Below are positions 60,618 to 64,000 of a stretch of DNA of 64,000 bases, piece by piece. The stretch is from contig JAFTVC010000012.1 of assembly GCA_017465925.1 (NCBI GenBank), positions 2,525 to 66,524 of the forward strand, read 5' to 3'. A model generated the notes under the pieces. That model did no database searches. It was not told the DNA's origin and worked only from the letters and a program-made list of their open reading frames with translations. Within the stretch, counting starts at the first letter, position 1; each line of letters opens with the position of its first letter. A program made the translations under genes and the position numbers. Origin of the DNA: Clostridia bacterium. GTDB lineage: Bacteria > Bacillota > Clostridia > Christensenellales > UBA1242.

Positions 60618-60646
60618 AAAAAGTAATTAGAAACTAATTACTTTTT
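60618..60646 (-). terminator. Hairpin overlapping the csm6 stop codon
   Basis: Minus strand reads AAAAAGTAATTAG-TTT-CTAATTACTTTTT, then ACTTTTAATAAAAAAAT. The U-tract is not ideal. Confidence 0.4.
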
Positions 60647-61977
60647 AACATTAATTTAAGTTCATTTATAATTTCTATATTCAACCTTTCAAAGAATATA
60701 TAATCTTCATCTTTTGTATTGTTTGGGTACGCATGTAAAATTAATTCTCTCAATTTATGTAAAACTTCTAACGGTGTTGTATTAGTTAGTGTTTTATAAT
60801 CAGACTTGCTTACATAAGTAATTTCATGTGCAACCTTATTTCTTATACTATCTTCTACACTTCTTAAAAGTTTTAAAGTGTTTAGAACCTTTTCATTACA
60901 ACCAAAATGTTCATATAAATCTATTAAATGTTTTGTTGCTAAAAAAGTATCATATTTAACTTCATTTAAAACATCACTAACATCATTATCTTTAATCTTA
61001 TCTAGAATTAGCCTTAAACCATTATTTGTTTTTATAGTAATTTTACTTAAATCAAATACATCACTTACAAGCTTTTTAGACAACAAATATAAAATTGGAG
61101 TTAGCCTAACAGTAAAATCAGTTATTAAGTTTTTCTTTTCTTTTATTTGCATTACATTATAAGAATTTAAAATATTTCTTAAATCAGTATCAGAAGTACT
61201 ATTACAATAAAAATTTGCAATTTTGCATTTAGTTTTTACATTCTCAAAATCGCTATTTTGATATTTATTACCTATCCCACATAAATCAATTAACTTTGCA
61301 TCTATTTCAAATGTTTCTTTTTCTAACTCATTTAAAGCATAAAAATAATTATAATCTTCCACAAAAGATTTTACTTTTAAATAGCAAGAAGACTTCCTAA
61401 AAGTTCTTAACTCCACTTCTCTACATCTATTTGTATAAGTATCTACATAACTATCAAAAACATTTATTAACGCATTCTCTTCAACACCGCTTGAATGTGG
61501 AACATTTGCATTAGACTTCTTTTCAGGTGTTGTAACCTGTATTGCCTTCATCTTTCTATTATTTACTACTAAATCAAGACATAAAGTTGATATAATTTGT
61601 GGAGTACCAGATGTTATATTTACATAATATTCACAATCTCCATTTTCGCCAACTATACCATCTATAATATTAGTAAACACTTTAAATGCTTCAAAGTTTG
61701 ATGCATCTTCAACATATAATCTTTTAGGTATTAATTCAAATTCTTTATGATGTCCTTCATAAAGTCCTTTTTCATTTGCAGATATGCCTTTGTATAACTG
61801 ATTTAAGCAATTTAAGTATCTATTATCTTCAAGATGCCTTTTGTACATTTCTTCTGTTAATAAAAGATATATTTTATCAGGCTTATATTGTCTAGAAATA
61901 TGCAAAAGTGGACCATCATATCCGTTTCTAATTGGGTCAGTATCACCAATAGGTGAAATTAAAATTATTTTTTTCAT
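60634..61977 (-). CDS. csm6: Csm6-family CARF-HEPN ribonuclease (type III CRISPR ancillary, cOA-activated)
   Basis: 447 aa from MKKIILISPIGDTDPIRNGYDGPLLHISRQYKPDK, very close to my recollection of the streptococcal Csm6 N-terminus. CARF motif NITSGTPQ and C-terminal HEPN RNKVAHE (Rx4H). Start at 61977 is preceded by AAAGGA. The track ORF is extended into the degenerate repeat. Confidence 0.85.
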   Translation of the reverse strand: MKKIILISPIGDTDPIRNGYDGPLLHISRQYKPDKIYLLLTEEMYKRHLEDNRYLNCLNQLYKGISANEKGLYEGHHKEFELIPKRLYVEDASNFEAFKVFTNIIDGIVGENGDCEYYVNITSGTPQIISTLCLDLVVNNRKMKAIQVTTPEKKSNANVPHSSGVEENALINVFDSYVDTYTNRCREVELRTFRKSSCYLKVKSFVEDYNYFYALNELEKETFEIDAKLIDLCGIGNKYQNSDFENVKTKCKIANFYCNSTSDTDLRNILNSYNVMQIKEKKNLITDFTVRLTPILYLLSKKLVSDVFDLSKITIKTNNGLRLILDKIKDNDVSDVLNEVKYDTFLATKHLIDLYEHFGCNEKVLNTLKLLRSVEDSIRNKVAHEITYVSKSDYKTLTNTTPLEVLHKLRELILHAYPNNTKDEDYIFFERLNIEIINELKLMLKSN

Positions 61978-62015
61978 ATTTATTCCTTTATAATTAGATA
62001 TTTTTAAAATAAATT

Positions 62016-63287
62016 TCACATTTCCAATATGGTTGGATTAATATAAACTTCTAGTGTGAAGTAATGAACTATTTAGTATTCATCCAATATGGTTTGATTA
62101 GTATTGAAATGAAGTTCCATTATGATGCTAATGGAGCAAAGTATTCATCCAATATGGTTGGATTAGTATGCAAGAATGTTTAACGATGCTTACAAAAGAA
62201 ACCATAGTATTCATCCAATATGGTTGGATTAGTATGATAGTGGCGATAGGGGTTGTTGGGCAAGCAATAAACGTATTCATCCAATATGGTTGGATTAGTA
62301 TTTATTGATTTTTTACTCATTATCTACCTCTCTTTCTTTGTATTCATCCAATATGGTTGGATTAGTATGCTGTTAAGTAGTCCCTACCAATAGAGCCTGT
62401 TTTAAGTATTCATCCAATATGGTTGGATTAGTATAAAATAATGAAGTACTACAAAATTCAAATTGTAGACAGTATTCATCCAATATGGTTGGATTAGTAT
62501 AAAATAATGAAGTACTACAAAATTCAAATTGTAGACAGTATTCATCCAATATGGTTGGATTAGTATTAAGAGAGGCGTTGGTGTGTATTATGAGGGCACA
62601 AGAGTATTCATCCAATATGGTTGGATTAGTATGTAAGAAAAACAGAAAAAGTAAACGAGAAATCATAGTCGTATTCATCCAATATGGTTGGATTAGTATC
62701 AACAGAGAAGATGCTAAGTACAAACTTTATTTGTGTATTCATCCAATATGGTTGGATTAGTATGTAATAAATAACAAAAAAATCCACATTGATTATAGAC
62801 CGTATTCATCCAATATGGTTGGATTAGTATTTAAGTCAAGCCTACTAATAGCTAATTGCTCAGTGAGTATTCATCCAATATGGTTGGATTAGTATCATGG
62901 AAGGCATTGATTATTTCTTCTGTGTCAGTCATGTATTCATCCAATATGGTTGGATTAGTATAGAGAAGTATTTGACCAAAATGACATTGAATATTAGTAT
63001 TCATCCAATATGGTTGGATTAGTATAGTAATTTTCTAAATGAAGAAATGAAAGGTTATTCTGTATTCATCCAATATGGTTGGATTAGTATTCAAAGTGCT
63101 GGGGGTTAAAAATTACAAAAATTAATGTATTCATCCAATATGGTTGGATTAGTATGAAGAAGACTTTTCACTAACAAGTGGCAGTGTTATGGGTATTCAT
63201 CCAATATGGTTGGATTAGTATTGATGTAACGGATGTGATTGATAACTATGCAGTTTTAGTATTCATCCAATATGGTTGGATTAGTAT
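62016..63287 (-). CRISPR. CRISPR array: 19 canonical and 1 degenerate 29-nt repeats, 19 spacers (18 of 35-38 nt, plus a terminal 31-nt one)
   Basis: Plus-strand repeat is GTATTCATCCAATATGGTTGGATTAGTAT with internal stem ATCCAA/TTGGAT. Repeat starts: 62016 (degenerate), 62076 (1 mismatch), 62141, 62207, 62273, 62340, 62406, 62472, 62538, 62604, 62671, 62735, 62802, 62867, 62933, 62997, 63062, 63127, 63193, 63259. Minus-strand transcription is inferred from three things: decay at the 62016 end, cas1-cas2 and the AT-rich leader at the 63288 side, and a minus-strand repeat ending ...GGATGAATAC. Confidence 0.97.
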
Positions 63288-63313
63288 AGGAAAAAATGAA
63301 ACATTTTCCTTTA

Positions 63314-63341
63314 ATTTTAATATTTTAGGAAGTTTATGCAA
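63314..63341 (-). promoter_or_regulatory. Candidate leader promoter for the array
   Basis: Minus strand reads TTGCAT-N16-TAAAAT, ending about 26 nt before the first repeat. The -35 lies inside repeat module Y. Confidence 0.3.
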
Positions 63342-63474
63342 GCACAAAAACTTGTTTTTGTATTTGATATAAACGACGCCTAATTCAAACTGTGATGCAC
63401 AACTTGTTGTGGTGGTTGCGGTACGCAACACAAAATTAAACTTTTTTAATTTTATCATCACATAGTTTCTATTT
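63322..63474 (-). repeat. Modular hairpin repeat, locus D (inverted copy of locus C: arm + Z + linker + Y)
   Basis: The reverse complement of 63327-63431 matches the Z-Y core 41546-41650 with 4 mismatches. The arm aligns more loosely, with an indel. One Z-core mismatch falls in the loop of the GTTGCG/CGCAAC hairpin. Confidence 0.85.
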
Positions 63475-63568
63475 GTGAATACTTTCTTAAAAAAAACTAT
63501 CACTTCCACTTTAAATCATCTGTCTATCCCCTACTATTATACCATATTTATTGATAGACTGCAAATAT

Positions 63569-63847
63569 TTAAATAATATTTATTTTTGAATATTCATCAT
63601 TTTGTGTTAAACTTTTACGGACAATATTTTTCACATTTTTAACACATAAAATATCACACTTATCTTTTTTTCGCAAAATCATTTTTAAATTAGTTGCCAA
63701 TTCTTCAATAATAGGCTTTGATAATTCCCCAATAAAAATAGATTTTTGCAACTTGTACAAGTATCTTTTACATATTTTATGGACTTCGGTTAAAATTTTA
63801 CTCCCCTTTTCATCCATTACAATATCATACGCTACTATAACCAACAT
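63569..63847 (-). CDS. cas2: CRISPR-associated endoribonuclease Cas2
   Basis: 92 aa. MLVIVAYDI N-terminus. Position is between cas1 and the array. Confidence 0.88.
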   Translation of the reverse strand: MLVIVAYDIVMDEKGSKILTEVHKICKRYLYKLQKSIFIGELSKPIIEELATNLKMILRKKDKCDILCVKNVKNIVRKSLTQNDEYSKINII

Positions 63848-63850
63848 AAA

Positions 63851-64000
63851 TCACCACCACATAACAAAACCTTTATAAGCACATTCACCTTTTACATATC
63901 TAACCAACTTATACAATTCTTCTCGTATAAGGTATCTGTAACTAATATTTCTTTTTAATTTTCTATGGTAAATGGTTTCATTTATTTTATTATCCCAATG
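63851..64000 (-). CDS. cas1: CRISPR-associated endonuclease Cas1 (C-terminal 49 codons; continues beyond the window)
   Basis: Hand translation gives ...HWDNKINETIYHRKLKRNISYRYLIREELYKLVRYVKGECAYKGFVMWW*. This resembles a Cas1 C-terminus (SY..LIR.E.YKL...L.GE..Y..F...W). The stop lies 3 nt before the cas2 ATG. Confidence 0.75.
   Translation of the reverse strand, partial: HWDNKINETIYHRKLKRNISYRYLIREELYKLVRYVKGECAYKGFVMWW

Follow-up and report, generated by a model that had tools for sequence, protein, structure and literature searches.

The CRISPR-Cas genes at the end of the DNA stretch analyzed here (64,000 nt, hereafter the window) belong, with a probability of about 0.88, to a single type III-A (Csm) locus, complete in itself, on the minus strand, in which a III-A effector is joined to a processing and adaptation cassette of I-B type. 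The order on that strand is cas10-csm2-csm3-csm4-csm5-cas6-cas1-cas2-leader-array-csm6. The part inside the window runs from the 3′ end of cas1 through cas2, a leader of 281 nt and an array of 20 repeats and 19 spacers to csm6 (447 aa), and the initial annotation had located all of these correctly. The annotation had also reported that effector genes are missing from the window, which is true, but only since the window stops 150 nt into cas1; the contig runs on for a further 9 kb. Past that edge, where the annotation had expected any Cas10/Csm and Cas6 genes to lie, cas6, csm5, csm4, csm3, csm2 and cas10 follow directly upstream of cas1, all intact and with catalytic motifs present. csm6 seemed to be without an effector because the end of the window cuts the locus inside cas1. 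None of the ten cas reading frames is interrupted, catalytic residues are in place, and every Cas family in the locus scored above its curated cut-off in profile searches. The features are as follows (window coordinate = L001 coordinate + 59475):

60634-61977, minus strand: csm6, 447 aa from ATG; TIGR02672 311 bits against a cut-off of 150; PF22208, PF09659
61978-62015, minus strand: junction from the terminal degenerate repeat to the csm6 ATG, 38 nt; Shine-Dalgarno AAAGGA
62016-63287, minus strand: CRISPR array, 20 repeats of 29 nt, 19 spacers; cas-strand repeat ATACTAATCCAACCATATTGGATGAATAC
63288-63568, minus strand: leader, 281 nt, between cas2 and the array
63569-63847, minus strand: cas2, 92 aa; PF09827 57 bits, TIGR01573 39 bits
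63851-64000, minus strand: part of cas1 inside the window (last 49 codons); full gene L001 4376-5368, 330 aa
L001 5352-6077, minus strand of the window: cas6, 90 bits, above cut-off
L001 6074-7183, minus strand of the window: csm5, TIGR01899, 71 bits, above cut-off
L001 7188-8192, minus strand of the window: csm4, TIGR01903, 240 bits, above cut-off
L001 8149-8823, minus strand of the window: csm3, TIGR02582, 197 bits, above cut-off
L001 8836-9294, minus strand of the window: csm2, TIGR01870, 57 bits, above cut-off
L001 9297-11657, minus strand of the window: cas10, TIGR02578, 645 bits against a cut-off of 170

The subtype classification rests on the effector module, and a non-classical repeat does not decide III-A membership. 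Cas10/Csm1 has the HD nuclease motif (at 14-15) and the GGDD cyclase motif (at 604-607) that characterize the subtype, as well as a CxxC...CxxC pair, and aligns over its full length with solved Csm1 chains. Csm2 and the RAMP subunits Csm3, Csm4 and Csm5 are encoded in one operon, as in type III-A, and Asp30 of Csm3 (in MVDSP) is aligned with the catalytic Asp of solved Csm3. For both Cas10 and Csm3, alignments with the solved complexes 7UZW, 6XN3, 6IFN and 8WFX extend from end to end. Judged by their sequences, the effector module and csm6 belong to the firmicute III-A lineage.

The csm6 product combines an N-terminal CARF and a C-terminal HEPN domain (Pfam), and its family, TIGR02672, is Crf1_Csm6 in the 2025 classification. 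The HEPN domain contains the R-N-x-x-A-H motif as R379-N-K-V-A-H384, of which R379, N380, A383 and H384 are invariant in an alignment of 18 Csm6 homologues. The closest homologues are P0002 (49% identity) and P0003 (35%), and, among solved structures, 6TUG (EiCsm6) and 8PCW (StCsm6′) are nearest. CARF residues T13, T125, Q127 and R184 correspond in the sequence alignment to T11, T114, Q116 and R173 of EiCsm6, and the position of EiCsm6 N10 is occupied by Asp12; these five EiCsm6 residues are functionally tested cA6-binding/ring-nuclease residues. The protein is predicted to be a CARF-HEPN ancillary RNase of a family whose solved members bind cA6. Having a complete III-A operon immediately upstream of cas1, csm6 is not orphaned, as the initial annotation had thought possible. 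Downstream of csm6 lie a 113-aa ORF without a family match and then alr. The ORF was considered as a part of the CRISPR system and rejected, as it is linked to csm6 in no related locus.

The position of csm6 on the far side of the array had been regarded as unusual. This view is not supported: among 82 related loci, retrieved with a 5-sequence Csm6 alignment, an array separates the csm genes from csm6 in 28, and it is directly upstream of csm6 and co-directional with it in at least 16, with gaps of ≤45 nt in three. csm6 beyond the array is a common layout. The annotation itself had conceded that a full III-A operon immediately upstream, together with csm6 likewise placed in relatives, would make the architecture an ordinary one, and both were found.

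Eighteen of the repeats are identical, one has a single change and the csm6-proximal one has seven; 18 of the 19 spacers measure 35-38 nt and the terminal one 31 nt, and there is a duplication of one repeat-spacer unit. As RNA, the repeat folds into a hairpin of a 6-bp stem and a 5-nt loop. It does not match the classical III-A repeat (~36 nt, CCCC/GGGG stem, ACGRRAAC 3′ end), being 29 nt long and ending in GGATGAATAC, and has the 12-mer TCCAATATGGTT in common with that of the I-B locus L118. The array probably runs along the minus strand, as is suggested by the degenerate repeats at its csm6 end, a promoter-like site after cas2, the co-directional arrays upstream of csm6 in relatives and one spacer with a match to the sense strand of a gene that belongs to a resident inovirus-like element. 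In contigs from two DNA runs the array is present, in fragments and in identical form, in two separate samples, and no spacer variants that could confirm its polarity were seen in them. Protospacer searches of the whole array against phages gave at best 85% over 40 nt with E = 0.03, which is at chance level; plasmids gave no match, nor did IMG/VR when searched with two leader-proximal spacer cores.

In the leader, the promoter-like site just after cas2 reads TTTGCA-18-TG-TATAAT (63565-63536; 10/12 positions matched in the promoter scan, extended -10). The leader is also interrupted, at about 63320-63474, by an inserted multicopy hairpin element, and read depth in the two DNA runs rises to 1022-1736 at 63336-63449 vs 20-30 in the flanks. 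This element could interfere with transcription or spacer integration. A scan of the minus strand of the 38-nt junction before csm6 revealed neither promoter-like nor terminator-like sites.

Cas1 scored 339 bits against the I-B Cas1b model TIGR03641 (cut-off 304), vs 139-178 bits, below the cut-off, for Cas1 of four III-A relatives. In a Cas1 tree it groups with seven I-B sequences, a 100/100 branch away from 36 III-A-linked ones; since it sits on a long branch (1.05) and the I-B comparison set was picked by Cas6 similarity to this locus, the tree shows affinity and not the donor. Identity to I-B loci is 37-42% for Cas1, 35-46% for Cas2 and 25-33% for Cas6. Among Csm6 relatives, the Cas1 of genome-derived loci (L008-L087) is ~25% identical, and tblastn found no counterparts of Cas6 and Cas2 in these loci except in L065; the 'IB_cas1' label on Cas1 matches in relatives only denotes the higher-scoring of two queries and is not evidence of I-B type. 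The best Cas6 homologues are encoded in cas6-cas8b-cas7-cas5-cas3-cas4-cas1-cas2-array loci, whose 30-nt repeats with a period of 66 contain the same 12-mer, and the combination of an I-B Cas1 with a 29-30-nt repeat and a ~66-nt period found here is that of type I-B. All arrays beside 156 Csm6 relatives, apart from L140, L141 and L065, have repeats of the CCCC..GGGGACGRRAAC type, 32-37 nt long, and Cas10 relatives likewise have 32-37-nt GGGGACGRRAAC-type repeats. cas6 overlaps cas1, which leaves no room for another gene between the two; cas4 is absent from the adaptation module, and tblastn with I-B Cas4 found nothing in the genome. By sequence affinity, then, the cassette formed by cas6, cas1, cas2, leader and repeat is of the clostridial type I-B lineage, without cas4, and the earlier impression that the repeat is more I-B-like than classical III-A extends to the three proteins; in an otherwise ordinary III-A locus, this is the one unusual trait. 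With an effector and csm6 of III-A lineage, the locus is probably the product of module exchange. According to two reviews (PMC6452270, PMC3973734), effector modules from other subtypes or types are exchanged around an adaptation module, cognate array and cas6 that remain linked, and such exchange is frequent.

The I-B type of the repeat, Cas6, Cas1 and Cas2 would also be expected if a type I-B effector elsewhere in the genome shared the array, Cas6 and Cas1-Cas2 with the Csm complex, a hybrid that the initial annotation had proposed. However, neither a Cas3 helicase-nuclease nor the Cas8b-Cas7-Cas5 Cascade genes that define type I-B were found: no cas3_core match exceeded the cut-off, the search for the Cas7b family gave no match, and the full I-B protein set from L118, used in tblastn, matched only cas6, cas1 and cas2 of the locus itself. 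As the assembly is 92% complete, in 37 contigs, cas3, cas8b, cas7b, cas5b and cas4 can be called only 'not found' in it. The repeat, moreover, is confined to one array in the whole assembly. We regard such sharing as highly improbable. The assembly also contains a separate type II (cas9) locus.

Several features would fit instead a decaying remnant, an inactive locus in which csm6 and/or the array is functionally unlinked from the effector. The leader carries the hairpin element, the terminal repeats are decayed and one unit is duplicated, and public phage, plasmid and viral collections yielded no protospacers. Csm6 was found in none of 36 same-family genomes and in 1 of 24 same-order genomes searched, so the locus is sporadic in this lineage. 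Yet the cas frames and their catalytic residues are all preserved, 18 repeats have stayed identical, the array is unchanged between the two samples and one spacer resembles the inovirus-like element, and we find decay very unlikely as an explanation. A complete III-A system remains our preferred reading.

Known family biology suggests how this III-A system may work. The promoter just after cas2 would drive the array along the minus strand, and Cas6 would cut each 29-nt repeat at the hairpin, leaving a predicted 8-nt 5′ tag, AUGAAUAC. The Csm complex would bind complementary invader transcripts, with Csm3 cleaving the RNA and Cas10 using its HD nuclease and GGDD cyclase, the latter making cyclic hexa-adenylate (cA6). 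Through the CARF domain, cA6 would turn on the HEPN RNase of Csm6, and the same domain would degrade cA6. Located 38 nt behind the last decayed repeat, csm6 most likely owes at least part of its expression to read-through from the array, on a presumed common transcript. A stronger version, which we put forward only tentatively and consider rather doubtful, is that no dedicated promoter serves csm6 and that its message arises solely as the 3′ tail of the pre-crRNA, from which Cas6 would free it by cutting the last repeats; this might be a recurrent design and not an accident, because at least 16 related loci have arrays directly upstream of, and co-directional with, csm6. If true, it would tie the dose of collateral RNase to array transcription and processing.

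The value of these results is mainly corrective: because of a window edge, a complete immune system had been taken for a stranded accessory gene. The common array-between-csm-and-csm6 layout raises a testable question, namely whether csm6 is co-expressed with the crRNA precursor. The locus also offers a clean bacterial example of a III-A effector that would work from an I-B-type repeat, Cas6 and Cas1-Cas2 without Cas4, which makes it useful in studying Cas6/repeat compatibility and PAM-free adaptation.

The III-A systems of Staphylococcus epidermidis, Streptococcus thermophilus, Lactococcus lactis and Enterococcus italicus have the same effector set, i.e., Cas10 (HD, GGDD), Csm2-5, Cas6 and Csm6 (TIGR02672), and the Csm6 CARF described here matches both EiCsm6 and StCsm6′, for which cA6-bound structures have been solved. 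Those systems have, however, a 36-nt repeat ending in GGGGACGAGAAC, whereas the present one is 29 nt long and AT-rich with a CCAA/TTGG-type stem; Cas6, Cas1 and Cas2 are here of I-B lineage, csm6 follows the array and not csm5, and protein identities are only 25-46%. In Clostridia and Negativicutes III-A loci, the array, with or without cas1-cas2, parts csm6 from cas10-csm5 as it does here. Examples are Butyribacter intestini (L014), Jingyaoa shaoxingensis (L034), Syntrophomonas palmitatica (L060), Anaerovibrio spp. (L084/L085), Ca. Limiplasma (L079) and a metagenome contig (L197), the order being cas10..csm5-cas6-array-csm6 in L079 and L084 and cas10..csm5-cas1-array-csm6 in L197. Arrays in these loci are co-directional with csm6, but their repeats are of the classical 35-37-nt GGGGACGRAAAC type, the four Cas1 proteins scored all fall below the I-B model cut-off, and the commonest order is array-cas1-cas2-csm6 instead of cas1-cas2-array-csm6. 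Clostridial I-B (Cst/Tneap) loci such as L118 and L120-L123 share with ours the cas6 ... cas1-cas2-leader-array layout and have 30-nt repeats with a 66-nt period and the TCCAATATGGTT core; in contrast to them, our locus lacks cas8b-cas7-cas5-cas3-cas4, and a III-A effector module and csm6 flank the cassette. It is no different in kind from the in situ effector-module exchange already described (Koonin and Makarova, 2019, PMC6452270; Vestergaard et al., 2014, PMC3973734), and is a known kind of system: one more case of module exchange, in an uncultured small-genome gut Bacillota lineage.

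The minus-strand elements that the initial annotation placed at 60634-64000 (csm6, array, cas2 and the end of cas1) are present as described. The contig that carries the window (C5:2525-66524, in an assembly of 1.31 Mb, 37 contigs and 92% completeness) runs 9 kb past the window end, and the effector genes lie there, directly upstream of cas1, tightly packed and on the same strand, where the annotation had predicted them to be. Features are listed below; for the stretch beyond the window (L001), 59475 has to be added to obtain window coordinates.

Features of the CRISPR locus
60634-61977, minus strand: csm6, 447 aa (TIGR02672, 311 bits, cut-off 150; Pfam Csm6 CARF and HEPN)
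62016-63287, minus strand: CRISPR array, 20 repeats of 29 nt, 19 spacers
63569-63847, minus strand: cas2
63851-64000, minus strand: cas1 3' end, last 49 codons
L001 4376-5368, same strand as csm6: full-length cas1
L001 5352-6077, same strand as csm6: cas6
L001 6074-7183, same strand as csm6: csm5
L001 7188-8192, same strand as csm6: csm4 (240 bits)
L001 8149-8823, same strand as csm6: csm3
L001 8836-9294, same strand as csm6: csm2
L001 9297-11657, same strand as csm6: cas10/csm1 (645 bits)

All seven genes from cas1 to cas10 exceed the curated NCBIfam cut-offs. The motifs of Cas10 are intact (HD at 14-15, GGDD at 604-607, paired CxxC of a zinc finger), as is the HEPN motif of Csm6 (R379-N-K-V-A-H384), and Asp30 of Csm3, within MVDSP, aligns to the catalytic Asp in Csm3 structures. 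With the full gene set above cut-offs and its catalytic motifs intact, the type III-A system is complete and reads cas10-csm2-3-4-5-cas6-cas1-cas2-leader-array-csm6; the effector had seemed to be missing because the window ends within cas1. Upstream of cas10, L001 11660-13220 comprises about 1.5 kb without any ORF of at least 50 aa, in which a ~30-nt element with the hairpin TGTCGGCATAGTTCCGACC occurs three times, spaced 129-134 nt; two tRNA genes follow at L001 13224-13387.

Two explanations had been offered for a csm6 without effector genes. That of an orphaned csm6 is unsupported in this incomplete assembly: a full III-A operon stands directly upstream of cas1. The other, a hybrid locus whose array is shared with an I-B effector, would require I-B effector genes; queries from a bona fide I-B locus (Cas8b, Cas7, Cas5, Cas3 and Cas4) found no matches in the 92% complete assembly, in which neither a cas3 above cut-off nor an I-B Cas7 was detected, and this reading is likewise left without support. 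No further copy of the array repeat was found anywhere in the assembly. The genome does hold a separate type II locus, with cas9, cas1 and an array of GTTTGAGAGTTATGTT-type repeats (C6:79265-86549 and C9:1020-1438), the array being split by the contig break. Its cas9 (C6:79265-83401; TIGR01865, 774 bits) is open over 1414 codons, and its cas1 may contain a frameshift, as the match falls in two pieces (C6 83446-83898 and 84294-84470).

Within the III-A array, 18 of the 20 repeats are identical; the second-last differs by a single change and the one nearest csm6 by seven. Of the spacers, 18 of the 19 measure 35-38 nt, the terminal one 31 nt. An adjacent pair of identical spacers (62435-62537) indicates tandem duplication of one repeat-spacer unit. 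The decayed repeats at the csm6 end, together with a promoter-like site just after cas2 (TTTGCA-18-TG-TATAAT, 63565-63536), would locate the leader at the cas2 end of the array, with transcription along the minus strand. The same array is present in DNA contigs from two samples. Part of the leader (63336-63449) is a multicopy element, since its depth in contigs from two DNA runs on gut metagenomes is 1022-1736, versus 20-30 in the flanks. The minus-strand repeat folds into a hairpin (6-bp stem, 5-nt loop) and ends in GGATGAATAC, which, once cut by Cas6, would leave a predicted 8-nt tag, AUGAAUAC.

Protospacer searches outside the own genome found no external targets of the array. Inside it, spacer 62831-62866 matches (31/36 nt) the gene for a 693-aa protein on C6 that has no family match and adjoins a G2P/ORF2-type replication protein gene (PF23343); C6:67500-73000 (L205 3531-8939) probably represents a resident inovirus-like element. 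The spacer matches the sense strand of the gene, which, as a single data point, fits what RNA targeting by a minus-strand crRNA requires. Spacer 62170-62206 matches two inverted copies ~100 nt apart (25/27 and 23/26 nt; C20:28575-28727, L206 4576-4728), intergenic and adjoining genes for a Cro/CI-type HTH protein and a DUF2726 protein; the site is a hairpin repeat or else the regulatory region of a mobile element.

The CARF domain of Csm6 aligns with those of EiCsm6 and StCsm6', both of which bind cA6 in their solved structures. Residues T11, T114, Q116 and R173 tested in EiCsm6 are kept as T13, T125, Q127 and R184, and N10 is replaced by Asp. From this alignment and these residues, Csm6 is predicted to be an RNase that cA6 activates and that limits its own activity; sensor, effector and ring nuclease are combined in this family according to the 2025 classification. 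As a sequence scan found no promoter-like or terminator-like site between array and csm6, putative expression of csm6 by read-through from the array is plausible.

The position of csm6 beyond the array had been considered unusual. We compared 80 genomic and 76 metagenomic loci of Csm6 relatives (24-35% identity), annotated by tblastn with the own locus proteins and a simple array finder. Csm genes precede csm6 on its own strand in 82 loci, and in 28 of these an array intervenes, counts that are not independent, the loci being related to one another; the layout is plainly common. Most often the order is then cas10-csm2-5-array-cas1-cas2-csm6, as in Catonella morbi, Butyribacter intestini, Jingyaoa shaoxingensis, Syntrophomonas palmitatica and Fusicatenibacter. 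Sixteen loci have the array <700 nt upstream of csm6, and three (L140, L169, L172) have a gap of ≤45 nt, similar to the 38 nt here. L079 and L084 show cas10..csm5-cas6-array-csm6, with cas6 confirmed, and L197 shares the order csm5-cas1-array-csm6 with our locus. These arrays are co-directional with csm6 wherever the repeat 3' end is recognisable. In the own lineage the system is sporadic: Csm6 was found in 0/36 same-family genomes.

The I-B-like character noted for the repeat was borne out: its 12-mer TCCAATATGGTT is common to the repeat of L118, a confirmed clostridial I-B locus (cas6-cas8b1-cas7-cas5-cas3-cas4-cas1-cas2), whereas arrays adjoining Csm6 relatives have CCCC..GGGGACGRRAAC-type repeats of 32-37 nt, except in L140, L141 and L065. 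In the genome-derived relatives (L008-L087), tblastn found no counterpart of Cas6 or Cas2 except in L065, and Cas1 is ~25% identical to the Cas1 of those relatives. Among 400 genomes sampled from the phylum, the closest matches to Cas6 (25-33% identity) sit in loci with cas6, ~6 kb, then cas1-cas2-array, with 30-nt repeats at a 66-nt period. Identity to the proteins of these I-B loci is 37-42% for Cas1 and 35-46% for Cas2; with the I-B model TIGR03641 (cut-off 304), Cas1 reaches 339 bits and the Cas1 of four III-A relatives 139-178 bits. In a maximum-likelihood tree, with a long branch for the own Cas1 and an I-B set picked through Cas6 similarity, a 100/100 branch parts 36 III-A-linked Cas1 from our Cas1 and seven I-B Cas1. 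Judged by these comparisons of repeat, Cas6, Cas1 and Cas2, the cas6-cas1-cas2-leader-repeat cassette is of I-B descent, without cas4, and this I-B-type cassette is coupled to csm6 and an effector module of the III-A kind.

In L140, a further 30-nt array of I-B-like character, truncated upstream by an IS1634, ends in a decayed repeat immediately ahead of a csm6. In L141 (metagenome contig Ga0172382_10007332; 3-2332 and 12762-13314) a III-A locus lies between two different arrays: one has I-B-like repeats of 30 nt with ATTGAAAC at their end and an IS21 element between array and cas10, and the other, after cas1, is of the classical GGGGACGGA type. Module exchange of the sort seen in our locus is already known: adaptation module, cognate array and cas6 are kept as a unit and the effector module is exchanged for one of another type, and reviews describe such exchange as frequent, in type III above all (PMC6452270, PMC3973734).
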